Of a stretch of 40,861 bases of DNA, positions 3,369 through 35,292 are shown piece after piece. Origin of the DNA: a virus. Taxonomy: Duplodnaviria; Heunggongvirae; Uroviricota; Caudoviricetes. How positions within the stretch are numbered: the first letter of the stretch is position 1; every line of letters begins with the position of its first letter. Made by a program: the position numbers and the translations under genes. The notes under the pieces are model-generated. The model was given only the letters and a program-made list of their open reading frames with translations, ran no database searches and was not told the DNA's origin. The stretch is from the IMG/VR virus record IMGVR_UViG_2541047778_000015. One strand, given 5' to 3'.

Positions 3369-3395
3369 CCCGCAAAATATTGCGGGCTTTTTTTT
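3369..3395 (+). terminator. Plus-strand intrinsic terminator (hairpin plus T8) overlapping the tailspike stop codon
   Basis: CCCGCAA-aata-TTGCGGG followed by TTTTTTTT on the plus strand; the minus-strand reading lacks a U-tract, so it does not terminate the tailspike transcript. Confidence 0.6.
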
Positions 3396-6300
3396 AACGT
3401 TCTTCCAGAGACTGAATCCGCTCTTTTATCTTATCCATTTCTCTGCGCTGCCATGCTGCCTCGATATAGAATAAGAGATCAGGTCTGACCCCCCATCTAG
3501 ATCCTGCTGGCGTTATTTCAACGCGCTCAATGATGTCTTCCATTACCATCACTGGATTATCATCCTCATCAACAATGATGCTCCCGTCATTATCAGTCAG
3601 CGGAATTTCCCTTTGGCCAGTAATGACGTCATCATATACTGCGGGATAATCGTCATAGCAAAGAAAGGCATAGCGGCATGTTGTGCTTTCTTCTTCCATG
3701 AGTCCGTGAGAAATAAGAACATCACGAAGTTGCTGCGCGATTACACCATGATGTATCCTCGCCCCTTCTTCCCCCTTTATAGCGACAGCGTTCAGCCATT
3801 TATAAGCGATATACCTGACGTCACCCCAGGCATCCAGCAATGCTTCGTCAGGAGAGACCGGCTCTGTCTTTAATGTTCCGTCACTGGTAACCACAGGATT
3901 GGAGCCAAGATAAACTGTCGAGAACCTGTTTCCCGGACCACCAAGAGCATTTACATTATCAAGATAAGGTTTAACATCTCCGTTCTCAAAAAGATGTTCG
4001 AGTGCGTTATATACCGCGCGACGTGGAGTACTGCTTCTGGAACCATGCAACGTTATCATTGCACCATCTGCTGAAGACGTTGTTTCACCGCCGCTAACGA
4101 TTAATCTCTGAGCGGTAACATCATCAGACGGTACTTTCTTCGCAATAATGGCGTAATTACCCTCAAGTTTGACTTCCGCGCGAACTTGTCCTGATGTACC
4201 TGCATGGACAGTCAGTGACTGGACGGCAACATCATCTGTGAAATCAACGGGTACAGGAACCGTCCTCACGCCTGACGTCGACATAAAAGTAGGAAGCGTT
4301 CTGTTAGGAGTGGCTCCGTAGACAAAATCCCTTGAAACAAATTCTTCCTGTTTAATTTTCACCCTGAAACAATACAAATCAGCCGGGTGACCATCGTGAA
4401 CATAAGGATATTTTCTGTTGTTATCCCCTATGCTCCATGGGTTTAGAAAGTCTTCCCCACCGAAAATGTAGTACAGCCAGTTGTCTTTGATACAAACTGA
4501 ACCAACACCAACCGCAGAGTTAACTATTCCGCCCTGATAAATCTGATCAGTAACATTAACCCACTCTACATTATCCAGACTCCACTCATTGACGTTAACT
4601 CTGGTCATAAATGTTCTTGGATAATTTCCTGCATAACGGTTATCAGGTTCTCCTCCTTCCCACTCACCAAATGCGCGCTCACTGCCAAAAATAATCAGCT
4701 CATCGCCAACTTTGGCAAAAGGAAGGTTTGAGTGATGAACATTATTTGGGAAGCGAAGAGAATTCCATGATGTACCTAAATCAGAGCTTCTGTGCAATGA
4801 ACTACCGGGTTGAGTACTTAATGTCCCCCTGGTCGTCAGATACAGAATGCCATCATAATATTTTACACATGGCTCAGATGCATTCGCCTCATATTCTGCA
4901 GGTATGCGTCTGCGAACAAAGCTACCAGGAGAACCGAAAGCATCAGAGAAATAGAGTATCCCAAGCTCGCGTGGACCAATATCACCATTATGGTAGCCAA
5001 CAGCAAAACTGTTATCGCTAATCGTCGCAAAACTGTGAATCTCAGTAACAGGAGTGCTTCCGTCAACAAAAGAAGGAATAGTTCCAAGACTGGTTTTTCT
5101 CCATGGTGACGAGTGAAATGATGTACCAAAACTCCAGTATCTACCCTCGTTATTCTGATCCACATCCTGGGTATTTTGCGTCGTAACTGTAAAAGTATTT
5201 TTATCAATAACAGTAGTCACCGTCATATTCCCGGTAACACCTGTAACACCAGAGTTTGAGAAGTTGACAAAATCACCAGCAAATAATCCGTGATCAGTAA
5301 TGCGAATATAAGCGACTTGCTGATTTGCTGCTTTCGTTATACCACCATAAACGCGAAGGCTGCGACTCATTGGGCGATCCCACAACTCTGCAACCTGCAG
5401 TTTATTTCCGCTCACGGTCCGCGTCTCAATTACAGCAAAAAGGCGATTTCTGACAACCCCCATACTCATGCAGTGATAGTTAACTGTGGGATAGTTTTCA
5501 TGTAAATCTGTAAGCCATTCCGGCGTTGTCCAGGTCTTCCCGTCATCTCCTGAGCGAACCCATGCAACATGGAGGTTATTTACACCATGGCGGTCTCCAG
5601 CCATAAAAGGCGCATAGATGACATTGTCATATACAAACGTTTTATCCTGCGTCCAGGCGTTGTACCACGGTGTATCTGTAATTTTAAATAACTCTCCCTG
5701 GATAAAATCTTCAGAAGCATAAAAAAGAGGCTGACCCGGTATTCTCTCAAATAAAAAACGAGCATTTTTAAATCGGCTGACATCCGGAAGAGTTGATACT
5801 TTAAAAGTAAGCCCTAATCCGTCAATTTTATAACCTGGAGATGAGGCTTCAAGGCACGCGCTTATTGCAGTGGAATCGTCATTTATACCATCACCAACAG
5901 CTCCAAAATCTTTGGGGCTAATAGCATCACGCATTTTATCCTGGAACGTTCGGTACACAGCCCCAGAACCATACTGAATAAACCAACCAAAACCACCAAC
6001 AACCCCGGCGATTGCAGCATCGACATAATTACGCATTGAGCGATTATTTACAGCGTCCTGTTCAAGTGATGGATCTGCAAGGTTAGAAATTTTGTTTTGC
6101 TTTGCATCGTAATATTTTGCAAGCAAAGATGGTTTCATCAATGCACGTCTGAACCACCCAAAACATTGCTGGATCAGCATCGTCAGGTAGTCAAAAGCAT
6201 CTTCATGCACTTCGGGGAAAAATTTTCCCTGATTGCGAAGGTCTGTCTCCTGCACTACATCAAGCACACGATCTATCGTAATTCGCCATCCAGCAGCAAG

Positions 6301-6513
6301 CGGCGACGGAAGAACAACAGAACCGCCACTATAAGTGCCCGCCCCAGTTACCGTATAACCGGTATCCAGTACTAGTTCTGTTACGTTACCGTTAAGGTCA
6401 GACACCTGAACAACCAGGTCGGATTTTTTGAAAATACGGAAGGTATACGGAAATGATGTCGTAACGCCGTTACCAGTGTATTCGTTGTGGTCAACTTCGG
6501 TTGAGACCGTCAT
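3394..6513 (-). CDS. Tailspike / tail fibre with predicted C-terminal intramolecular chaperone domain
   Basis: 1039 aa; N-terminus resembles the T7 gp17-type adaptor domain; two Asp-box-like motifs (SGDDGKTW, SSDLGTSW); C-terminal ~160 aa resemble the peptidase S74 chaperone domain, with S-x4-K at VVTSDGTLK. Confidence 0.8.
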   Translation of the reverse strand: MTVSTEVDHNEYTGNGVTTSFPYTFRIFKKSDLVVQVSDLNGNVTELVLDTGYTVTGAGTYSGGSVVLPSPLAAGWRITIDRVLDVVQETDLRNQGKFFPEVHEDAFDYLTMLIQQCFGWFRRALMKPSLLAKYYDAKQNKISNLADPSLEQDAVNNRSMRNYVDAAIAGVVGGFGWFIQYGSGAVYRTFQDKMRDAISPKDFGAVGDGINDDSTAISACLEASSPGYKIDGLGLTFKVSTLPDVSRFKNARFLFERIPGQPLFYASEDFIQGELFKITDTPWYNAWTQDKTFVYDNVIYAPFMAGDRHGVNNLHVAWVRSGDDGKTWTTPEWLTDLHENYPTVNYHCMSMGVVRNRLFAVIETRTVSGNKLQVAELWDRPMSRSLRVYGGITKAANQQVAYIRITDHGLFAGDFVNFSNSGVTGVTGNMTVTTVIDKNTFTVTTQNTQDVDQNNEGRYWSFGTSFHSSPWRKTSLGTIPSFVDGSTPVTEIHSFATISDNSFAVGYHNGDIGPRELGILYFSDAFGSPGSFVRRRIPAEYEANASEPCVKYYDGILYLTTRGTLSTQPGSSLHRSSDLGTSWNSLRFPNNVHHSNLPFAKVGDELIIFGSERAFGEWEGGEPDNRYAGNYPRTFMTRVNVNEWSLDNVEWVNVTDQIYQGGIVNSAVGVGSVCIKDNWLYYIFGGEDFLNPWSIGDNNRKYPYVHDGHPADLYCFRVKIKQEEFVSRDFVYGATPNRTLPTFMSTSGVRTVPVPVDFTDDVAVQSLTVHAGTSGQVRAEVKLEGNYAIIAKKVPSDDVTAQRLIVSGGETTSSADGAMITLHGSRSSTPRRAVYNALEHLFENGDVKPYLDNVNALGGPGNRFSTVYLGSNPVVTSDGTLKTEPVSPDEALLDAWGDVRYIAYKWLNAVAIKGEEGARIHHGVIAQQLRDVLISHGLMEEESTTCRYAFLCYDDYPAVYDDVITGQREIPLTDNDGSIIVDEDDNPVMVMEDIIERVEITPAGSRWGVRPDLLFYIEAAWQRREMDKIKERIQSLEER

Positions 6514-6669: not shown

Positions 6670-6689
6670 TACTGTATAAATATACAGTT
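6670..6689. promoter_or_regulatory. LexA (SOS) box
   Basis: TACTGTATAAATATACAGTT: CTGT-N8-ACAG with an AT-rich spacer, close to the consensus TACTGTATATATATACAGTA; lies 20 bp upstream of the 6709 start and overlaps a TATAAAT -10-like hexamer. Confidence 0.7.
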
Positions 6690-6708: not shown

Positions 6709-6966
6709 ATGCAGCAGTATCACTATCCACTGGAAGACGGATTTACCGAAAGGATTCACACGCCGGGAGGCGTCAGATCACTGGTGGAGGGATCGCACTT
6801 GATGAAATTACTCCGGGATCTCGATAAGGATGGATTTAATGTCGATGGCCCACTTGCCGAACTGACTGCACTGATTAACTACGTCACCAGCTCACAGATG
6901 TCTATGCAGGATCTGCAAACACATCTCGACTATTGTGCCGAACAATTACGAAAACAAACCACATAA
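6709..6966 (+). CDS. Small protein homologous to the shared antirepressor C-terminal module (candidate SOS-inducible antirepressor)
   Basis: ATG at 6709 with GGAG 8 nt upstream (ORF track used TTG at 6691); the 85-aa product aligns with the C-termini of the 8112 and 10849 genes. Confidence 0.55.
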   Translation: MQQYHYPLEDGFTERIHTPGGVRSLVEGSHLMKLLRDLDKDGFNVDGPLAELTALINYVTSSQMSMQDLQTHLDYCAEQLRKQTT

Positions 6967-7845: not shown

Positions 7846-7960
7846 TTTACATCGCACTCCTCTTGTGCCATAGTAATCGGGCACTGGCAAAATCCAGTGC
7901 CGGGATTGGTCTCCCGGATTACTACAGAGGCACATATGCCGCATAAGCGGTTTTTTTATG
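7838..7960 (+). ncRNA. Candidate structured small RNA or leader/attenuator upstream of the Bro-N antirepressor
   Basis: Outer helix AGTAATC/GATTACT encloses hairpins GGCACTGG-caaaat-CCAGTGCC and GGGA-ttggtc-TCCC; followed by GCCGC-ataa-GCGG plus T7. Confidence 0.4.
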
Positions 7961-8111
7961 TGTAAAGCGCACCTATTCTATGGTGGGCTGTGTGGGGGCA
8001 CCGAAAGGTGCGCCGGGTTCCTTTGTAGCCGGTAAGACCAACTCTGCACAGTTCACCACCATCTGATTGGTCTCAGCGGTGGTGATTAACCTAACTACAA
8101 AGGTGATCGCC

Positions 8112-8804
8112 ATGAATACCAAACCTTCCATCTTTTCCTTTGAGTCATCCTGCCAGATCCGTATGTTCATGATTGACGGAGAACCTTGGTTTGTCACCAA
8201 AGATGTGTGCAATGCTTTGAATATTGATGTTACACAAGCGAGAAAACTTGATAAAAAAGGCTGGAACAAAAAGGGGCTGTATTCAATACAGACCCCTGGT
8301 GGAATACAAGAACTATCCATCGTTTCAGAATCAGGTCTCTACATCCTTATTCTGCGTTGCAAAGAGGCAATGACTGAGGGAACGAGAGCATTCAGATTTC
8401 TTGAATGGGTTACAGGTGAGGTTCTTCCTCAGATCCGCCGCACCGGAAGTTACATTAAAAACTCGCTCCCGCAGGAAGAACGCATAAAGATGGTTGCCGA
8501 CCAGGTAGCCAACGCCACAGCATCAGCAGTGATGCAGGCAATGAAGATAGAGAACAAAACCTACAGTGCCCCACTGAAGCCCGGCTACCGCAGCCTGATT
8601 CATTCTCCGTCTGGTGTTCTCGGCCTGACGGAGAACTCATTGCTTATGAATCTGCTAAACCAGTTACAGGAAGACGGGCACGACGTATCGGGCGCGGCGG
8701 CGGAGCTGACCACCATGTTCTGCTACATCGTCGGTGTGAGCAAATGCCTGCGTGATATCCAGACCCACGCGGAGTACATCAACGACAAGGCAGGGTTCTT
8801 CTGA
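8112..8804 (+). CDS. Antirepressor with Bro-N/KilA-N-type N-domain and shared C-terminal module
   Basis: Start at MNTKPSIFSF (ATG 8112); the N-terminal segment IRMFMIDGEPWFVTKDVCNALNI is Bro-N-like; the last 77 aa are identical to the C-terminus of the 9911..10849 product. Confidence 0.7.
   Translation: MNTKPSIFSFESSCQIRMFMIDGEPWFVTKDVCNALNIDVTQARKLDKKGWNKKGLYSIQTPGGIQELSIVSESGLYILILRCKEAMTEGTRAFRFLEWVTGEVLPQIRRTGSYIKNSLPQEERIKMVADQVANATASAVMQAMKIENKTYSAPLKPGYRSLIHSPSGVLGLTENSLLMNLLNQLQEDGHDVSGAAAELTTMFCYIVGVSKCLRDIQTHAEYINDKAGFF
8571..8804 (+). repeat. Inverted-repeat copy A (codes the shared 77-aa C-terminal module)
   Basis: Reverse complement matches 9911..10144 with about a dozen single-base differences by hand alignment, all synonymous. 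Confidence 0.8.
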
Positions 8805-8841
8805 CGGGCGGTGGCACAGGGATGTGCCTTTAAAATAATCA

Positions 8842-8944: not shown

Positions 8945-9577
8945 ATGAAAACAAATACAACAAGAAAAGCGATGCCATACATTATCCCAGAAGCAGATTT
9001 CGACAGAAAACTGAACATGTCTGAGAAGAACACTAGTCACACCGAAAGCTACTTAGCGAAAGGTGTGGTTGATTTCGTTCTTCCGGGATTCACAACACCT
9101 TATGGTTATCGCCTTGTAAAATCTTGTAATGGCGATCATTACAGAATGATTACTACCAGCGATACTCCAGAAACGGTGTATGCGGTTAAGTTAATCTTTC
9201 GGGAAGATATCGTCGAAGCTAAAAGAACATGTACGCAGATCATGGTATGGCGTACGCCTAATGTTATTCATGACCGTGCTGTTCATGGTTTGCCTCAGAT
9301 TTTTTTTCAGTTCTTTCTAGAGCAATATGCGATCGTTGTATCTGATGAGCAACAAACAATCGATGGGAGAAGATTCTGGGAAAGAATGATTTCTTGGGCT
9401 ATAAACACCCCGGGATATAATGTATACGTTTCAGATGGCTCTGAAGAAGATAGACCTCTTAGCTTCATGACATCATGGGATGATTTCTATAGCCAGTGGG
9501 CTGATTTCTGTTGGGGCAGTGATAAAGATGTGCATACCCACAGACTACTGGTTATAAGCAAAGATAAACTGCATTAA
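8945..9577 (+). CDS. Hypothetical protein, accessory cargo
   Basis: 210-aa ORF with its own promoter-like region and downstream terminator; no family recognised. Confidence 0.55.
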   Translation: MKTNTTRKAMPYIIPEADFDRKLNMSEKNTSHTESYLAKGVVDFVLPGFTTPYGYRLVKSCNGDHYRMITTSDTPETVYAVKLIFREDIVEAKRTCTQIMVWRTPNVIHDRAVHGLPQIFFQFFLEQYAIVVSDEQQTIDGRRFWERMISWAINTPGYNVYVSDGSEEDRPLSFMTSWDDFYSQWADFCWGSDKDVHTHRLLVISKDKLH

Positions 9578-9603: not shown

Positions 9604-9675
9604 GTGGACGAAACAAAAGTCAGTGCTACACTCATTGACGCCACATTGAGGTGGCTTATAGATGGAAATTTCACA

Positions 9676-9837
9676 ATGAAAAAAGCATTTGCTGCACTGT
9701 TCGTTTTGTTGTCTCTGGTAGCTTCAACTCAGGCCTTTGCCGGTCGTTGTCAGCACGACAGCGATACTGCCGCTGACGGCTCCCGCTGCGGTGGGCGTTC
9801 TGCGGATTCCCGCCCGGGCGGCGGTGGCATTCGTTAA
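9676..9837 (+). CDS. Small secreted Gly/Cys-containing peptide (candidate)
   Basis: MKKAFAALFVLLSLVASTQAFA signal peptide, then a ~31-aa Gly/Asp/Arg-rich body with two Cys; start is the ATG at 9676 inside the longer ORF-track frame. Confidence 0.4.
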   Translation: MKKAFAALFVLLSLVASTQAFAGRCQHDSDTAADGSRCGGRSADSRPGGGGIR

Positions 9838-9860
9838 AAACAAGGCCGCGAAAGCGGCCT
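9836..9860. terminator. Hairpin terminator serving the minus-strand antirepressor gene (possibly bidirectional)
   Basis: A-run, then AGGCCGC-gaaa-GCGGCCT; read on the minus strand the hairpin is followed by a U-run. Confidence 0.5.
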
Positions 9861-9910
9861 GTGACATGTCACGCTAGTTTCGTTTTGCACGTCCCTGTGC
9901 CGCCGTTCTG

Positions 9911-10144
9911 TCAGAAGAACCCTGCCTTGTCGTTGATGTATTCCGCGTGCGTCTGGATATCACGCAGGCATTTGCTCACACCAACGATGTAGCAGAACAT
10001 GGTGGTCAGCTCCGCCGCCGCGCCCGATACATCGTGCCCGTCTTCCTGTAACTGGTTCAGCAGATTCATCAGCAGTGAGTTCTCCGTCAGGCCGAGAACA
10101 CCCGACGGCGAATGAATCAGACTGCGGTAGCCTGGCTTCAATGG
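9911..10144 (-). repeat. Inverted-repeat copy B (codes the shared 77-aa C-terminal module)
   Basis: See copy A at 8571..8804. Confidence 0.8.
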
Positions 10145-10849
10145 ATAACCATAACATTTTGTCTGTGTTTTAATTGCCTCACGAAGCGCATCTAACATCT
10201 TGACTGCCACTTCATCATTCTCTGATGCAGATCCAGCAGGGAGATACTCCCCTTCAAGCGGAACCCGAGCAACAAGAGACAACGCTTCGGCAAATTGATC
10301 TTCACCAATTTCTTTGTACGAACAGCCAAAATGAGATTTCAGTGACGACCACATGGTGATCATCGCCTTAGCCTGTTTTTCTTTTGGCAGAGACTGACCG
10401 CGACTCATGACGAGTTGTTTAATGGCTTCCTGCTGTTCAGTTGTTATTTTACCCGGCAACGCCTTTTTAGCTTTGCGTGGGTTAACCACATGGCCTTTAG
10501 TCCAGTACTCGTAGAGCACATCGTCACACTCTTCCTGATACTGGATTACCTTGTCGCGGATTTCAGGGCGGACTTTGTTAGGGCTGATGCTGTTCAACCA
10601 AGCTGCCAATTTTCGTAAAGCCATACAAATCATGGCTTGCACCCCACCGGCAGAAGGTATGGTGATTTCCACCATACCCTTCGAGAAGCGTTGAGAAATC
10701 TTCTTATGTTGAGATTTCCAGTCTAGCCCCATTCCCTCAACGATAGGTTTCATTGGGGTATACGGTTCGCCGTTGTGATTGACAACATAAAGCTCTGCGC
10801 CGTGGAATGGCACGTTGATAGTAGATACTGCTGTTGCTATACTCGTCAT
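9911..10849 (-). CDS. Antirepressor with P22 Ant-type N-domain and shared C-terminal module
   Basis: N-terminus YVVNHNGEPYTPMKPIVEGMGLDWKSQHKKI resembles the P22-type antirepressor N-domain; last 77 aa identical to the 8112..8804 product; sits downstream of an Arc-like gene as in P22 immI. Confidence 0.7.
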   Translation of the reverse strand: MTSIATAVSTINVPFHGAELYVVNHNGEPYTPMKPIVEGMGLDWKSQHKKISQRFSKGMVEITIPSAGGVQAMICMALRKLAAWLNSISPNKVRPEIRDKVIQYQEECDDVLYEYWTKGHVVNPRKAKKALPGKITTEQQEAIKQLVMSRGQSLPKEKQAKAMITMWSSLKSHFGCSYKEIGEDQFAEALSLVARVPLEGEYLPAGSASENDEVAVKMLDALREAIKTQTKCYGYPLKPGYRSLIHSPSGVLGLTENSLLMNLLNQLQEDGHDVSGAAAELTTMFCYIVGVSKCLRDIQTHAEYINDKAGFF

Positions 10850-10898
10850 GTCGTTAATTCCTATACGTAGTTTTACGATACTGAAGCCCTGACGGTCT

Positions 10899-10912
10899 GG
10901 CCACCGTGGGGC
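10899..10912. promoter_or_regulatory. Mnt-operator-like near-palindrome (GGCCACCGTGGGGC)
   Basis: Contains CCACGGTGG on the opposite strand, the core I recall from the P22 mnt operator; second copy at 11104..11118. Confidence 0.4.
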
Positions 10913-10921
10913 TTCGCTGTT

Positions 10922-11089
10922 TTATGCCACGCTATTCTTCTCACCAGTGAGTCCATACACTTTCCTCAGCTGATAGATAATCTCTGTATTGAACTTTCGG
11001 CATTCTTTTTCGCCATTTCTTTCAATAGCTAACTTCACATCGTCCGGAAAACGAACTCGTCGTTGACACATCTCTTTTGCTTTTTGCAT
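10922..11089 (-). CDS. Arc-like ribbon-helix-helix repressor
   Basis: Start at MQKAKEM with AGGAG 7 nt upstream (ORF track used GTG at 11110); RVRFPDDVKLAIERNGEKECRKFNTEIIYQL parallels the P22 Arc RHH region. Confidence 0.6.
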   Translation of the reverse strand: MQKAKEMCQRRVRFPDDVKLAIERNGEKECRKFNTEIIYQLRKVYGLTGEKNSVA

Positions 11090-11103
11090 TTCATATCTCC
11101 TTA

Positions 11104-11118
11104 GCCCCACCGTGGGGC
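11104..11118. promoter_or_regulatory. Mnt-operator-like near-palindrome (GCCCCACCGTGGGGC) in the arc/ant promoter region
   Basis: Perfect outer arms GCCCCA/TGGGGC; lies between the divergent mnt-like and arc-like genes; related CACACCGTG and CACACGGTG elements at 11130..11163. Confidence 0.45.
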
Positions 11119-11209
11119 AAAATAATTGTCACACCGTGCGTCATTGATGTCAAGCACACGGTGAGGCATACTTCAATCATTGCAAGTAACTCAATATTTG
11201 GTGAAGAAC

Positions 11210-11641
11210 ATGAGCAGAGAAGATCCACAACTAAGGATCAGACTTCCCGTCGAAGTAAAAGAAAAAATAGAAATTTCTGCAAAAGCCAATAAGCGATCAA
11301 TGAACGCTGAAATAGTACAACGTCTTGACACCAGCTTTCTGAAAGATATTCATGAAGATGACGTAATTTCTGCTTATGAAGCAAAAATCATTGCAAACAA
11401 TGCACGACATGAAATATCAAATATTATTTTCAAAAGAACCTTTAATGAAATTAATAAGAAAATAACACTTGGACATACAAGTTTTTATATAAACCTTAAT
11501 GACCTTGAACTGGAATCACTTGCAGATAATGATTACCAGATCATCTTTGAAAAAACATTTAATAGGCTCAATGAACTAGGTTACATCATCTGTGAAAACT
11601 CATGGGATGCAGATGGTTTTGGAATTGAAATACCTGAATAG
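11210..11641 (+). CDS. Mnt-like ribbon-helix-helix repressor with C-terminal extension
   Basis: MSREDPQLRIRLPVEVKEKIEISAKANKRSMNAEIVQRL parallels the P22 Mnt N-terminus as recalled; 143 aa, longer than the Mnt I recall. Confidence 0.65.
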   Translation: MSREDPQLRIRLPVEVKEKIEISAKANKRSMNAEIVQRLDTSFLKDIHEDDVISAYEAKIIANNARHEISNIIFKRTFNEINKKITLGHTSFYINLNDLELESLADNDYQIIFEKTFNRLNELGYIICENSWDADGFGIEIPE

Positions 11642-11731
11642 GAAGAACAAAAGGCGTGTACATATTACACGTCTTTAATACAATTGAAAAACGCCACATT
11701 ACTGATGTATGTTACAACAAGGAGCGATATT

Positions 11732-12295
11732 TTGAAAACCATATCTATATTAAAGGTTGCATTAGGCGTCGCTATTATTTTGACTCTCTCAATATTGTTT
11801 TATTTTTACCACAAACAAACTGCTATTGCTCTTGATAGTCACGCGGCAAACTCATTTTTCTCAGAGTACATAGTGCCGCTATCAGGAAGCGGTATAACAA
11901 ATAAATATACTGACTATGACATCAAATATGGAATTGATGATGGGGAGACTATTGTATTACATGTAATCATTAAAAACCTAATGACAGTAAATAAAAATAC
12001 AGACTTCAACGATAAAAATACAATACATCACAACAACAGCAAAACATTAATTTCTTATAGTAGCAACATCTATACGGATAAATACCTAAAATACATATCA
12101 GAAGATACAATAAAAGAAACCCGCGAAAAGTTAAAAAACATATATTGTGCATCCGGCAGTTTTCACAAATTATCGCCGCAAGAGCGTTTATTCTACGAAG
12201 CAAGAAAACAACGTAAGTCAATAATATTACATTATTATGCTGATTCAGGGGAGACACTCATATTTAATATTGGGGTTTCCCCTGAATCATGCTAA
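11732..12295 (+). CDS. AT-rich accessory gene, membrane-anchored protein of unknown function
   Basis: TTG start with AGGAG 8 nt upstream gives MKTISILKVALGVAIILTLSILFYFY (signal anchor); AT-rich by eye compared with the flanking genes; ORF track begins at 11684. Confidence 0.5.
   Translation: MKTISILKVALGVAIILTLSILFYFYHKQTAIALDSHAANSFFSEYIVPLSGSGITNKYTDYDIKYGIDDGETIVLHVIIKNLMTVNKNTDFNDKNTIHHNNSKTLISYSSNIYTDKYLKYISEDTIKETREKLKNIYCASGSFHKLSPQERLFYEARKQRKSIILHYYADSGETLIFNIGVSPESC
12241..12289. repeat. Perfect 12-bp inverted repeat with 25-nt spacer at a convergent gene junction
   Basis: TGATTCAGGGGA ... TCCCCTGAATCA. Confidence 0.5.
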
Positions 12296-12306: not shown

Positions 12307-15300
12307 TCACCGCATCACCGGATCCACTTGGTTTATTAGTGGCGCAATCCAGAACAGGTTATTGCCGGGTATCAGGGTTCGGACATTATGCACAATACGA
12401 TCACCGGCATCACCATTCAACACTCCTGAGGTCACATCAATGATGCTATCCGCAAGACCAAATGACGGTCCGAATAGAGATCCTACGAATCCACGACTGG
12501 CATACCTGGACTGTGTGCCAGTGCCAAATAAAGCCCCCAGCCCAACAGCACCACCAGTCGCCTTTTCAGCCATGTTGTTATATTCCATCAATGGCCCAAG
12601 AATACCGGATCTATCTATACCCTCAAGCACCAGCTTCTCTGGTGACCAGTCAACATTTTTCCCTTTCGATGCTTCTTTAAGCGCATAGACCAGTGAGCCA
12701 AGAGCAATCTGAAATGCAGTGCCATAATAAAATTGCGCAGTTCCTTCCTGTAACCCACCAAGTAGCGCACGGTTGTATGAAGCCGTTGTGAATGATTTAA
12801 ACTGAAATATCGTTCGCCCCATTGGAGTACTCGCCCATAAAGGTGTGTCACCAATACCGGGGGTGATGATAGTGTTATTAACGTCTTTCAGAACCGCTGA
12901 CTGGAATACTCCGGCAACGTACTGATCGTCCCATTTATCAAAGTTACCAATGTGCCATCCATCAATTACCTCACCATGTTTCTCGAACTCACTGCGAATA
13001 CGCGCAGCCATATTGTCGTTGATACCGAGTTTTGCCATGCGACGTGCAGAAAACGCACCAGACAAAATACCGTCTGACGTGAGCATTCCGTTCATGGATT
13101 TGTTTATGTCATTAAATCGATCCATGAGTGTCAGCTTGCCGAAGGCATCAGTAATTCGCTCCATTCCTGCTTCGACTGCTGTTGTCCTGGAAGAACTGTC
13201 AACAAGATCACCAATTGCACGAGAACGTGAATGTAGTACAGTTTCCAATCCAATCCCCATCTTCAACATCTCTTCTTTGCTGGCCTTAAATGCCGGTGAT
13301 TGGGATATCTGAGAAGCATAGCCTTTCATGGAGTTACGGAAACCATTAACCATAACCCCTCTGGCCAGATCTGGAATAGCTGATACTGTCATTCCACCGA
13401 GTTTGGTCGTGAAGTTCACATCCCGCAGAAAAGCGCCAGCACGAACAAAAAACGAAGACGGGTCATCAGGCATACCATATGTACCAACAAGACGATCGCG
13501 TAATGCTGTTATGTCTCTGAGATCATTTGCTCTTGATTTTGAAAGTCTGGACTGTTCTTTCCGTAATTCCTTTTCGTACTTTCGCATTAATGAATCGAGT
13601 TTACCCTGAGGAACAACTTCACCATTGCTCTCATAACGTGCTTTCAGATTTGCCACACTTTCGTCATATTTCGCCTTTATTTTTTCAGGCACTTCCCGTA
13701 ACAGACTGTCATATTCGTCCTCAATTAATTGCAGACGCTCTGTCATAGTTCGTTTGCCAAATGTTCTCGTCAACTCAATTTCTGCTGCCGCTTCACGGAT
13801 ATGACGTTGTAGAACGTAATTCACATCACTTTCGAGATAATCCCTGATAAGACTATCAGGCACATTTAATGTTCTTTCTTTCGTACTACCTGCGGCTTTT
13901 ACAGAAAATACGCTGACAAAATCCTGTGGAACCTTAGCACCAGTAATTTTATTAATTACGATATCCGCTGCAATTTCAGCATCCTCAGGATCCAGTGTTT
14001 TATTGCCTCTCGACCACCAGTCAACCAAAATACGTCGAAATTTATCGCGTTCACTGATTATTTTTCCAACTTTATATATACGTGGGAAATAGCTTGCCTG
14101 GCCTAATGCTTTCAGTTCTTCATCTGGCGGCAATAAACCAAGCTTTTGCATTTCAACCTTCACCCGATTTAATACAGTTCGCATCGCCTGCGCCGTTTCC
14201 TGAACAACAGGATTAGCATGCACATCACCGCTTCGCATAGCATTCCCAACCTGCTGACGAAATGAATCAAAACTCATGTCACCACCATCAGCTTTATACT
14301 TTGCGTATGCCTGTTTATTTCCGACAACAACAGCAGCTTCTTCACGCTGCCATCCACGTGTACGGGTTTCTACAGCTACCGGTGTTTCAATCCCCCTTTC
14401 ATTTCCTTTAAGGGTGAAATTATTTTCGGCTAACTCCAGCGTTGTTTTTCGCACTGTCTTGGACGGAGACTCCATTAACCTTGTCAAAGGAGTAAGATAG
14501 CTCCCTGCTTTCCATGCAGCCTTTCCAACCACCCCACCGGAAACAGGGGTTAAATCATCCAGAGTCGCTGTATCAATTTTCATAGCACCAACACTACCAC
14601 CATCAGAAAGCGAAGCGGCAGCCCTGTCAGTCGCTGATGTAATGCTCATATTATCAAGAGCATCAGCAACCTCACGCGTGGCTGCAGCCCGGACGGATGG
14701 CGAAAGCGCAACACCAGCACTGGCAAACACGCCGCTCATCATCGCACCCGCTGCAATGTGAGCGGCACTTTCACCCCATGAGCGTGTTATTTGCTGATTA
14801 TTCAGCACAACCTCGCTTAATGCTGTACCGGCTGCACCAATCGCAATCTGTGAGCCAATACGCGCCAGTGCCCCTCCTTGAGCACCGGGGATAAACATTG
14901 ACGCAACAGTAACCGGATCCATTCCCGCAGCAATACTGGCAAGGGTTCCAACTACGCCAGCATCAGACAATAAACGTCTGTCTTCATTTTCATCATCTAT
15001 CTGCTGCTTAATCCACGCCGTTTCCTCTGGCGATCGGGAATCTGCAAATTTCGCCCCCCAGTATTCATAACCGTGCAACTCATTTTTATCAGCATATGGG
15101 TTATAACCTTCGACCGGTTCAAACTGTCTGGCTGGTCGGAAAAAACCAGCCAGAATATTGTTCTGTCGCATTGCAGCCCCCCATACGGAAGGCTCCGGTG
15201 GCAATGGCTCAGGATTAGCCCCTTCCGGAAGGGCAACATCAAACCCAGTTTGTTCCGGCAAAACATTACCTGACGGGATCAGTCCGTTATTAAGATCTTC

Positions 15301-15321
15301 AGCTTGTGCATAAACTGGCAT
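12307..15321 (-). CDS. Large internal virion / ejection protein (podovirus-type)
   Basis: 1004 aa, Gly/Ala-rich hydrophobic stretches and long charged helical regions; last of three consecutive large virion genes. Confidence 0.6.
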   Translation of the reverse strand: MPVYAQAEDLNNGLIPSGNVLPEQTGFDVALPEGANPEPLPPEPSVWGAAMRQNNILAGFFRPARQFEPVEGYNPYADKNELHGYEYWGAKFADSRSPEETAWIKQQIDDENEDRRLLSDAGVVGTLASIAAGMDPVTVASMFIPGAQGGALARIGSQIAIGAAGTALSEVVLNNQQITRSWGESAAHIAAGAMMSGVFASAGVALSPSVRAAATREVADALDNMSITSATDRAAASLSDGGSVGAMKIDTATLDDLTPVSGGVVGKAAWKAGSYLTPLTRLMESPSKTVRKTTLELAENNFTLKGNERGIETPVAVETRTRGWQREEAAVVVGNKQAYAKYKADGGDMSFDSFRQQVGNAMRSGDVHANPVVQETAQAMRTVLNRVKVEMQKLGLLPPDEELKALGQASYFPRIYKVGKIISERDKFRRILVDWWSRGNKTLDPEDAEIAADIVINKITGAKVPQDFVSVFSVKAAGSTKERTLNVPDSLIRDYLESDVNYVLQRHIREAAAEIELTRTFGKRTMTERLQLIEDEYDSLLREVPEKIKAKYDESVANLKARYESNGEVVPQGKLDSLMRKYEKELRKEQSRLSKSRANDLRDITALRDRLVGTYGMPDDPSSFFVRAGAFLRDVNFTTKLGGMTVSAIPDLARGVMVNGFRNSMKGYASQISQSPAFKASKEEMLKMGIGLETVLHSRSRAIGDLVDSSSRTTAVEAGMERITDAFGKLTLMDRFNDINKSMNGMLTSDGILSGAFSARRMAKLGINDNMAARIRSEFEKHGEVIDGWHIGNFDKWDDQYVAGVFQSAVLKDVNNTIITPGIGDTPLWASTPMGRTIFQFKSFTTASYNRALLGGLQEGTAQFYYGTAFQIALGSLVYALKEASKGKNVDWSPEKLVLEGIDRSGILGPLMEYNNMAEKATGGAVGLGALFGTGTQSRYASRGFVGSLFGPSFGLADSIIDVTSGVLNGDAGDRIVHNVRTLIPGNNLFWIAPLINQVDPVMR

Positions 15322-27355: not shown

Positions 27356-27432
27356 GTGGCATTAGCTCAGTCGGACAGAGCAACCGCCTTCTAAGCGGTT
27401 GGTCGCAGGTTCGAATCCTGCATGCCACGCCA
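27356..27432 (+). tRNA. tRNA-Arg (anticodon UCU)
   Basis: Hand-folded cloverleaf: acceptor GTGGCAT/ATGCCAC, D-stem GCTC/GAGC, anticodon stem ACCGC/GCGGT with loop CTTCTAA, T-arm GCAGG-TTCGAAT-CCTGC, 3' CCA encoded. Confidence 0.8.
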
Positions 27433-34707: not shown

Positions 34708-35292
34708 ATGAAAAGTATCCAGGACGTCCGCAGGCAAAATCTCAACGACTTGATCGACCGTGAATTCAATGGTGTTCAGACGCGGATGGCAGAAAAACTT
34801 GGAACTCAGGCAAATCTGGTAAACCGCTGGGCTCTTGGCAAGAAGGTTATCGGCGACCAGGTTGCGCGAAAAATTGAAGCTGCCGCCAATAAACCCCGTA
34901 ACTGGCTTGATATCGATCGCTCGCTTTCTCAGGAAGGTTTTCAGCCTGTCGGCCCAAGCGACATTGGTCAGCTGGCGGCTCACAACCTGGAACGCTGGAT
35001 GAGCGAAAGCCGCGACCTTTCAACACAGGGAAAACTTCACCGCGCATCCGGCGTCGCCCAGGTGACAATCAGCCGCCTGTTAAACAATGAGGTCAGCGTT
35101 TCCATTTCCACCCTGGAGAATGTTGCATCCGCATTCGGGCGTCACGGCTATGAATTACTGATTCACCCGCACGACCCTGCGACTATCAACTATGACCGCT
35201 CGCGCTACGCATTGTTACCCGAAACCGAGAAAGCAAAGATCGAAAGTTACATTGAATTTGTCATCAACCAGAACGAAAAAAACAAACAATAA
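34708..35292 (+). CDS. Prophage repressor with two HTH-like regions and no S24 autocleavage domain
   Basis: 194 aa; HTH-like segments near residues 24-46 and 110-145; no Ala-Gly / Ser-Lys peptidase region seen; divergent from cro. Confidence 0.65.
   Translation: MKSIQDVRRQNLNDLIDREFNGVQTRMAEKLGTQANLVNRWALGKKVIGDQVARKIEAAANKPRNWLDIDRSLSQEGFQPVGPSDIGQLAAHNLERWMSESRDLSTQGKLHRASGVAQVTISRLLNNEVSVSISTLENVASAFGRHGYELLIHPHDPATINYDRSRYALLPETEKAKIESYIEFVINQNEKNKQ

Follow-up and report, generated by a model that had tools for sequence, protein, structure and literature searches.

The question raised by positions 9911..11641 of IMG/VR record IMGVR_UViG_2541047778_000015 is whether an antirepressor gene found there is controlled in the manner of the immI region of phage P22, and through which operators. 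The whole stretch of DNA that was analysed, 40,861 nucleotides (nt), is called the window. P22 immI is the textbook model for DNA recognition by ribbon-helix-helix (RHH) proteins and for antisense control and, to our knowledge, hardly any work on it has gone beyond P22. The unit of the window is very probably an immI-type antirepressor control module, placed as a 'moron' insertion between the tailspike and internal-virion-protein genes and working by the mechanism proposed below. Judged from its sequence, it appears to be a three-operator variant of the P22-type antirepressor switch that is widespread in nature; no description of such a variant was found in the literature searched. The basic identification as immI is unsurprising, and it is the three-operator design and the shared recognition residues that are testable departures from the classic model.

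The unit comprises three genes:

9911..10849, minus strand: antirepressor gene (Ant), an open reading frame of 312 amino acids (aa) with a P22_AR_N domain
10922..11089, minus strand: Arc-like gene, 55 aa from its ATG, the first gene of the ant operon
11210..11641, plus strand: Mnt-like gene, 143 aa, divergent from arc-ant across a gap of 120 base pairs (bp)

A sequence-only reading of the locus had proposed that these three open reading frames reproduce the order and orientation of P22 immI, and this was confirmed. The Mnt-like protein was aligned by BLASTP with P22 Mnt over the whole of the latter (E 2e-13), its Pfam Arc domain was located at residues 2-46 (1.1e-14), and its family profile matched PDB entry 1MNT (3.2e-7). 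Ant matched Pfam P22_AR_N (5.9e-45) and the PHROG anti-repressor Ant families, and was 39% identical to P22 Ant over 217 aa of the N-terminal and middle regions (BLASTP E 2e-37). The Arc-like protein is close in size to P22 Arc (53 aa) and was matched to it by BLASTP (E 4e-5), to the PHROG Arc-like repressor family (3.4e-5) and, by hhalign, to the Mnt-like family (78.5% probability, E 1.7e-5). Its beta-strand corresponds to Q9-R10-R11-V12-R13-F14-P15, in a pattern of beta-strand, Pro, helix and 'R-x-F-N-T-E', and from its size, position and sequence pattern it is likely to have the RHH fold. An antisense RNA of the sar type, described below, is a fourth component shared with P22.

In the divergent region between the Arc-like and Mnt-like genes, three related 15-bp sites with centres at 11111 (A), 11135 (B) and 11160 (C) were found together with two promoters:

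11104..11118, unstranded: site A, GCCCCACCGTGGGGC, the exact family consensus GCCCCAC(G/C)GTGGGGC; 24.8 bits, the top match in the window
11125..11153, minus strand: Pant-like promoter, TTGACA-17-GACAAT with an extended -10 TG; 10/12 in the promoter scan, hexamers kept in 19/19 loci
11128..11142, unstranded: site B, GACGCACGGTGTGAC on the minus strand; 19.2 bits, second in the window, nearly invariant in 19 loci
11144..11172, plus strand: predicted Pmnt, TTGATG-17-CATACT, its -35 overlapping the Pant -35 back-to-back
11153..11167, unstranded: site C, AGCACACGGTGAGGC, degenerate in this phage where other loci have the consensus CCCCAC(S)GTGGGGC; 12.9 bits, third in the window, in the predicted Pmnt spacer and abutting the Pant -35

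The bit scores come from a matrix of 51 sites taken from 17 other loci, the window being excluded, and this matrix ranked A, B and C as the three best matches in the whole 40.8-kb window. The half-site invariants among the 51 sites are G1, C3, C5, A6 and C7, the last in 100/102 half-sites. The window contains eight CACSGTG heptamers, four of them within 262 bp (10902..11163). Relative to the ant promoter, site A runs from about +1 to +15, its end falling just ahead of the arc Shine-Dalgarno sequence; site B takes up the Pant spacer on its 3' side together with the first 3 nt of the -10, the place of Oarc in P22. A TTGNNG-17-CATAAT element with site C in its spacer was kept in 19/19 loci, the leader beyond it not being conserved, and Pmnt is the presumed promoter of the mnt-like gene. 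Sites B and C, at 11128..11142 and 11153..11167, and the sar RNA with its promoter go beyond what the sequence-only reading had listed.

On the minus strand, the order of elements is TTGACA, 17 nt, GACAAT, TATTTT, GCCCCACGGTGGGGC, TAAGGAG and then the arc-like ATG; in P22, it is TTGACA, 17 nt, TATATT, CTCAAT, AGGTCCACGGTGGACCT and then the arc gene. The aligned orders therefore put site A in the same place as P22 Omnt, at the Pant start point. It starts 6 nt past the Pant -10 (6-7 nt in P22), and the 9-bp core CCACGGTGG is common to both. In the P22 record, in which Pant, Pmnt, Oarc and sar are also annotated, the mnt operator is given as 14822..14844 and contains AGGTCCACGGTGGACCT; the core of Omnt given in the sequence-only reading is correct, and the palindrome placed at 11104..11118 in the divergent promoter region has both the core and the position of that operator. 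When the palindromes were compared with the P22 operators, the likeness to Omnt held for the 9-bp core, 12 of 17 positions being identical and the outer half-site being GCC vs GGT. With up to 3 mismatches allowed, neither Omnt nor the Oarc 21-mer had a match in the window, and the Pant spacer holds site B instead. Site A is, by position and sequence, the counterpart of P22 Omnt and a putative operator.

The same palindrome could act mainly as RNA, as a stem-loop at the 5' end of the arc-ant mRNA serving stability or translation, since the predicted transcript has it at about +1 to +15, with the Shine-Dalgarno sequence next in line, and a 6-bp GC-rich stem is possible. However, sites B and C are of the same sequence family and sit in promoter spacers, outside the arc-ant leader, and in P22 the homologous element is annotated as an operator bound by protein. 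Furthermore, the substitutions found in site A of relatives are often asymmetric, so that RNA pairing is broken while the half-site invariants are kept (GCCCCACAGTGAGGC, GCCTCACGGTGGGGC). A role mainly as RNA is very unlikely, and site A is treated below as a candidate protein operator.

The array was followed in relatives of the unit. The N-terminal patterns MSREDPQL / RIRLP[IV]ELK recovered 25 loci from species-representative genomes, in all of which (25/25) the divergent region has two or three sites centred on CACSGTG. Three related 15-bp sites are present in a 76%-identical cassette of an Escherichia coli lambdoid prophage (L004), and the cassette, with a long Mnt facing a 55-aa Arc-like protein and then the antirepressor, occurs in Enterobacter and Yersinia pestis among siphovirus prophage tail genes. 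The Arc-like gene accompanies the enterobacterial-type operator array in 19/19 loci, and no viral contig with sequence to read lacks it. In Enterobacterales, the C-to-B spacing is fixed at 25 bp, and site C (consensus GCCCCAC-S-GTGGGG) directly adjoins the Pant -35 in all enterobacterial loci. A composite C/-35/B/-10 pattern was matched by 104 IMG/VR contigs; among the 80 that were read, a site A of the family was found in 78 and the Mnt N-terminus in 79. Over 64 distinct regions, site A holds 1.64 bits/position, vs 0.56 and 0.72 for the 10 nt on either side. Site C holds about 2 bits/position in relatives, although the pattern used for the search did not demand site C. Overall, the sites reach 1.6-2.0 bits/position vs 0.1-0.7 in the neighbouring spacers.

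In three Xenorhabdus loci (L018, L024 and L025), a GACAAT is found after site A, duplicating site B and the -10 (e.g. GCCTCACGGTGTGACAAT), which points to a second promoter in tandem or to local duplication.

The window itself belongs to an epsilon15/phiV10-like E. coli podophage with about 97% identity to Escherichia phage TL-2011b across 80% of its first 25 kb. Two details could mean that its cassette is a decaying remnant that has lost its function: site C is degenerate in the window phage, and mnt carries a +1 frameshift in TL-2011b, the one record of a free phage in which the cassette is present. Against this, all three open reading frames of the window are intact, a cassette at least 97% identical is present in 36 of 5426 complete E. 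coli genomes, and the promoters, sar and site A fit the family consensus. Decay to a functionless state is thus most improbable, and the unit is considered here as a working module.

The frameshift of TL-2011b (L001, NC_019445) is caused by an extra G at about 7640, equivalent to about 11236 of the window, in codon 8/9 of the mnt-like gene (CTAAGGATC to CTAAGGGATC), within the DNA-binding beta-strand of the protein. Because of it, RefSeq shows just a shorter 'hypothetical protein' for TL-2011b. The extra base may be an error of sequencing; if it is not, TL-2011b is a true mnt mutant, in which ant would be derepressed.

The arc-ant operon carries further elements between its two genes and beyond its end:

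9843..9860, minus strand: terminator-like hairpin and T-run from a consensus scan, 50 nt past the ant stop codon
10815..10843, plus strand: Psar-like promoter, TTGATA-17-TATACT with an upstream TG; 10/12 in the promoter scan, within ant codons 3-12, 7 nt before sar
10851..10918, plus strand: sar-type antisense RNA, a full-length match to the model of Rfam RF00262, 44.8 bits vs a gathering score of 43
10882..10916, plus strand: hairpin of the sar terminator, with GCTGTTTTAT after it; minimum free energy -23.5 kcal/mol, z -2.4

The first of these is the probable end of the arc-ant transcript. The predicted sar RNA is complementary to the ant ribosome-binding site and to the arc-ant spacer, and its start adjoins the ant ATG as it does in P22, where sar (15021..15090), the sar promoter and the sar terminator are annotated at corresponding places. 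The Psar -10 hexamer is encoded by conserved Ser-Ile-Ala codons, is kept in relatives as TATACT/TACAAT, and has the position of the annotated P22 Psar. The 3' part of sar is a long hairpin with GCUGUUUUAU after it. When 12 sar regions were folded one by one, the homologous arc-ant spacers all (12/12) gave a hairpin between -21 and -24 kcal/mol; the outer stem, GAAGCCC/GGGCTTC, is conserved among them, and the inner stems differ in a compensating manner (ACGGU/ACCGU, CUGU/GCAG, GUGU/GCAC, CUAU/GUAG, GAUGG/CCAUC). RNAalifold on a MAFFT alignment gave just the outer stem because the inner stems were misaligned. At the Rfam gathering threshold, sar was found in two of 20 related loci, L006 (76.6 bits) and L007 (59.4 bits); the loci below the threshold keep the homologous hairpin and spacer, as judged by eye.

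A second copy of the palindrome had been placed between arc and ant, at 10899..10912. The sequence GGCCACCGTGGGGC is present there, and the part of the claim that failed is its function: as the 3' arm, it is part of the terminator hairpin of sar, and its score on the operator matrix does not exceed 5.8 bits, when the best match in a shuffled window averages about 11 bits. It shares 12/15 bases with site A, amounting to one perfect half-site and the core, and weak binding by an RHH dimer to a single half-site might be conceivable, so that a second functional Mnt-type operator, for example a roadblock between arc and ant, had to be considered. The motif breaks the invariant half-site position C3, however, and relatives with the same operators do not have CCACGGTGG in the hairpin, the inner stems of L004, L007, L011 and others being of unrelated sequence. 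The reverse is seen in locus L005, whose operator GGTATAACGGTTATACC differs from that of the window, yet whose hairpin is almost the window's. A second operator at this place is extremely unlikely; the motif appears to be one inner-stem variant that resembles a half-operator by chance. As an annotation lesson, the case shows how easily a terminator arm is misread as an operator.

The identity of the protein that reads the operators was approached through the Mnt lineages. Three regions were distinguished in the Mnt-like protein:

residues 1-46: RHH domain
residues 55-87: long helix that aligns with the C-terminal region of P22 Mnt
residues 88-143: extra alpha/beta domain

The C-terminal extension remarked on in the sequence-only reading is real and conserved, as more than 260 full-length homologues are found across Enterobacterales with 59-70% identity and an invariant N-terminus, MSREDPQLRIRLP. 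RHH recognition in general and the tetramerisation of Mnt through its C-terminal domain are summarised in PMC3325190, and an N-terminal specificity swap is cited in PMC3413123. The same Mnt RHH domain and three-site array also occur with unrelated C-terminal regions in L004, L031 and about 20 IMG/VR loci (L041-L120), so that Mnt's C-terminal domain is modular; these proteins have 86-91, 117 or 124 aa, and the tail of L004 is coiled-coil-like.

The operator half-sites vary with the Mnt lineage. Proteins with QLRIR go with GCCCCAC, those with QLRVRIP with CTCAC, and those with QLK(I/V)R, from Acinetobacter and betaproteobacteria, with ACCAC..GTGGT; P22 (HFNFR) has GGTCCAC, and ST64T/SE1 (QFNLR) have AGACCAC. 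This comparison indicates that the core CCAC-S-GTGG is common to several Mnt lineages and that the outer bases vary. The Xenorhabdus/Serratia loci L029, L032, L033, L036 and L038 have no Arc-like RHH protein downstream, yet they keep three sites; their Mnt proteins are of 107-109 aa (QLRVRIP), and the flanks of the sites are CTCAC..GTGAG.

By alignment and hhalign, the DNA-facing beta-strand triad is Gln/Arg/Arg in both RHH proteins of the window. Relatives of the Arc-like protein have mostly Gln/Lys/Arg, and the P22 triads are His/Asn/Arg (Mnt) and Gln/Asn/Arg (Arc). The residues His6/Asn8/Arg10 of Mnt and Gln9/Asn11/Arg13 of Arc are presumably those that contact DNA, their positions having been placed by alignment. 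Since the DNA-facing residues are shared, the favoured model has a single site family read by the two regulators, and the comparison points to a possible sharing of operators between the Arc-type and Mnt-type proteins of this variant.

A division of labour as in P22, with the Mnt-like protein bound to A and C only and site B serving as the Arc-like protein's own operator, would account for several features of site B. It lies at exactly the place of P22 Oarc, and it is nearly invariant. In Arc-containing loci its half-site positions 2 and 4 are unlike those of A and C (GACGCAC/GTCACAC vs GC/TCC/TCAC), the distinct purines at position 4 being found just in those loci; in the Xenorhabdus/Serratia loci without an Arc-like RHH protein, the flanks of B are CTCAC..GTGAG, the same as those of A and C. 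However, all 51 sites have the same invariant C3, C5 and A6, with C7 in 100/102 half-sites, the triad Gln/Arg(Lys)/Arg is common to the two proteins, and the flank of B is partly forced by the overlapping -10 hexamer (GAC). Such a split is possible though less likely, and the shared use of one site family is retained in what follows.

The target of Ant was sought in its C-terminal third. This third has no homology to that of P22 Ant, the BLASTP alignment being confined to residues 1-212, and it is not P22_AR_C. Instead, residues of about 231-307 (nt 9914..10159) were aligned by phmmer with the whole 86-aa 'Anti-repressor protein' of PDB entry 5D50 (5D50_E, E 6.8e-14), and the repressor encoded at 34708..35292 of the window is a homologue of the repressor chain of the same entry (5D50_A, 4e-42). 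We take 5D50 to be the LexA-controlled Rep-Ant of Salmonella phage SPC32H (presumably the system of Kim and Ryu 2013, a study cited in PMC7380047).

Two more copies of this module are found in the window. The last 78 aa of Ant are identical to those of a Bro-N protein (8112..8804), so that a shared antirepressor C-terminus was upheld, and an 85-aa open reading frame (6709..6966) has about 90% identity to the anti-repressor chain of 5D50 (E 1.3e-47) and 42% identity to the Ant module. The latter follows immediately on a perfect LexA box (CTGTATAAATATACAG, 6672..6687), and this frame is probably the 'SOS-controlled' antirepressor with which the sequence-only reading had compared Ant. Immediately upstream of the Bro-N antirepressor, Rfam matches were obtained for isrK (7881..7957, 74.7 bits) and for a C4 antisense RNA (7976..8063, 78.6 bits), an arrangement that looks as if a third copy of the effector module were under RNA control in the style of P1/P7 immI.

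The claim that the immI-type unit is an independent layer of control stands as far as can be told from sequence. With at most one mismatch, no LexA box (CTGT-N8-ACAG) was found between 9543 and 16265, and there is no copy of the palindrome ATTACC-N5-GGTAAT within 9911..11641. The unit would accordingly add its own control to a second, really third, copy of the same effector module.

The palindrome ATTACC-N5-GGTAAT has 14 matches in the window vs 1.17 expected (e.g. 6617, 7736, 7829, 8870, 34637, 35349 and 35411). It flanks the repressor gene and is also found ahead of the LexA-controlled ant, the isrK/C4 unit and an open reading frame at 8945. As the sites cluster around the repressor gene, it is possibly the operator of the main repressor.

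From these elements, the following circuit is proposed. In a lysogen, the Mnt-like RHH repressor would be made from Pmnt and, by analogy with P22 Mnt, would probably be a tetramer. It would occupy the 15-bp palindromes G-N-C-N-C-A-C-(S)-G-T-G-N-G-N-C, sites A (at the Pant start point) and B (in the spacer and -10) jointly holding arc-ant silent and site C, in the Pmnt spacer, allowing autoregulation of Mnt; in the window phage, A is perfect and C is weakened. When Mnt is absent, through infection of a naive cell or loss of Mnt, Pant would fire and the Arc-like protein and Ant would be made. The Arc-like protein, with the same Gln/Arg/Arg triad, would probably bind the same site family and end the burst. 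In parallel, sar, running from the side of the ant ATG to the hairpin, would pair with the ant ribosome-binding site and block Ant translation. The C-terminal module of Ant, as a homologue of the 5D50 anti-repressor, is expected to act on the repressor encoded at 34708..35292. The homology of the four components (probable for the Arc-like protein), the position and conservation of the three sites and of both promoters, and the RNA family match are observations; which protein binds which site, the oligomeric states, the transcript ends and the interaction of Ant with the repressor are the parts of the circuit that we infer.

A bolder form of this circuit is offered tentatively: the two RHH regulators might compete for three operators of the same family, in a differential-occupancy switch like that of lambda CI/Cro at OR1-3, and the effector module would be wired to three inputs. 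If so, induction would be a three-input decision, because the module is wired to a LexA box, to C4/isrK antisense RNA and to Mnt/Arc/sar.

Several points weigh against the proposed reading. Site C of the window phage (12.9 bits) scores below every training site (minimum 14.6), and autoregulation may therefore be weak or absent in this phage. Pmnt matches the consensus at 8/12 positions only, for which reason it was not listed by the promoter scan. The RHH assignment of the Arc-like protein is moderately supported: no match was found in a Pfam scan, and in the PDB profile comparison the Arc chains were weak (E 0.085-0.18), among designed proteins and primase fragments. The B-to-A spacing varies from 24 to 27 bp and site A lies 6-9 nt past the -10 in enterobacterial loci, and the variable B-to-A spacing argues against a rigid cooperative complex across A and B. 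A simple residue-to-base code was rejected, as L005 and ST64T both have Gln/Asn/Arg and their operators differ. Finally, no binding, transcript or genetic data on this family were found in the literature searched.

Compared with P22 immI, the unit is alike in gene order and orientation, in its Mnt-type and, probably, its Arc-type protein and in the P22_AR_N domain of the antirepressor, in a sar RNA that starts beside the ant ATG and ends at the arc-ant spacer hairpin, in a palindromic operator with core CCACGGTGG at the Pant start point, and in its moron location between virion-protein genes and the tailspike gene. It differs in its operators, P22 having one Omnt and an unrelated 21-bp Oarc (with TAGA-type half-sites, between the Pant -35 and -10), whereas the window has three sites of one family. 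In P22, Pant and Pmnt overlap with each -35 facing the other's -10, whereas the promoters of the window are predicted to be back-to-back with overlapping -35 hexamers. The Mnt-like protein, of 143 aa, has an added alpha/beta domain unlike P22 Mnt, the Ant C-terminus is a 5D50-like module in place of P22_AR_C, and the triads are Gln/Arg/Arg in both regulators instead of the His/Asn/Arg (Mnt) and Gln/Asn/Arg (Arc) of P22.

The accessory-gene block that holds the unit is flanked by a tailspike-like gene (3394..6513, minus strand) and by large internal-virion-protein genes (12307..15321, minus strand, and onward). P22-like phages carry an 'ant moron' at the matching genomic place, and those of epsilon34, L, ST64T, SE1, CUS-3 and HK620 form a mosaic exchangeable cassette with variable mnt/arc/ant content (PMC2629481). 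The cassette of the window shares this genomic position; the 'ant morons' are in Lederbergvirus genomes, whereas the window's is in an epsilon15/phiV10-like podovirus and its closest relatives lie among siphovirus prophage tail genes. The palindrome of ST64T/SE1 Mnt, AGACCACCGTGGTCT, has the same CCAC-S-GTGG core as the sites of the window, and no three-site array was found in the P22, ST64T, SE1 and L006/CUS-3 loci examined. The likeness to the 5D50 pair lies in the Ant module, in the repressor homologue and in the near-identical stand-alone Ant behind a perfect LexA box; the difference is that the module of the unit is fused to P22_AR_N and is under Mnt/Arc/sar control, not LexA. For the Bro-N antirepressor (8112..8804), which has a C4 antisense RNA (78.6 bits) directly upstream and carries the shared C-terminal module, the nearest known counterpart is P1/P7 immI (c4 antisense RNA - icd - ant). 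P1/P7 immI is not so for the immI-type unit, which has other control logic and other proteins.

The variant is much commoner than the P22 form, with 104 IMG/VR contigs and many Enterobacterales including Y. pestis, and related forms are found in Acinetobacter and betaproteobacteria. Its cis-architecture, made up of three 15-bp sites with two promoters and sar, shows sharp conservation and lends itself to testing, and the natural covariation of Mnt N-termini with operator half-sites could be used to study RHH specificity. The presence of one repressor-binding antirepressor module under three control circuits in a single phage bears on signal integration and cross-talk in prophages.

Some further observations concern annotation and the neighbouring genes. 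P22 mnt (L003, NC_002371, 14519..14770) is named 'partition protein ATPase' in RefSeq, a label that has passed to PHROG 795 and 2685 and to many records of P22-like phages; this is an annotation error, since the product is a well-characterised repressor.

Downstream of the mnt-like gene, on the same strand, 11705..12295 encodes a 196-aa protein of PHROG 8033 (unknown function) that has a transmembrane segment at its N-terminus, and promoter-like sites are found at 11657..11713. Its placement resembles that of the genes downstream of P22 mnt (orf59a, sieA), and it could be a prophage-expressed exclusion or conversion gene.

The C-terminal modules of the Bro-N antirepressor and of Ant form a 270-nt inverted repeat with 90% complementarity (8536..8805 and 9910..10179), a possible substrate for inversion by homologous recombination. 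The 1.1-kb segment within it holds a 210-aa open reading frame (8945..9577, PHROG 1349, unknown function) and a small lipoprotein-like one (9673..9837). Elsewhere in the window, a tRNA gene was detected at 27356..27429 (Rfam tRNA, 73.3 bits).

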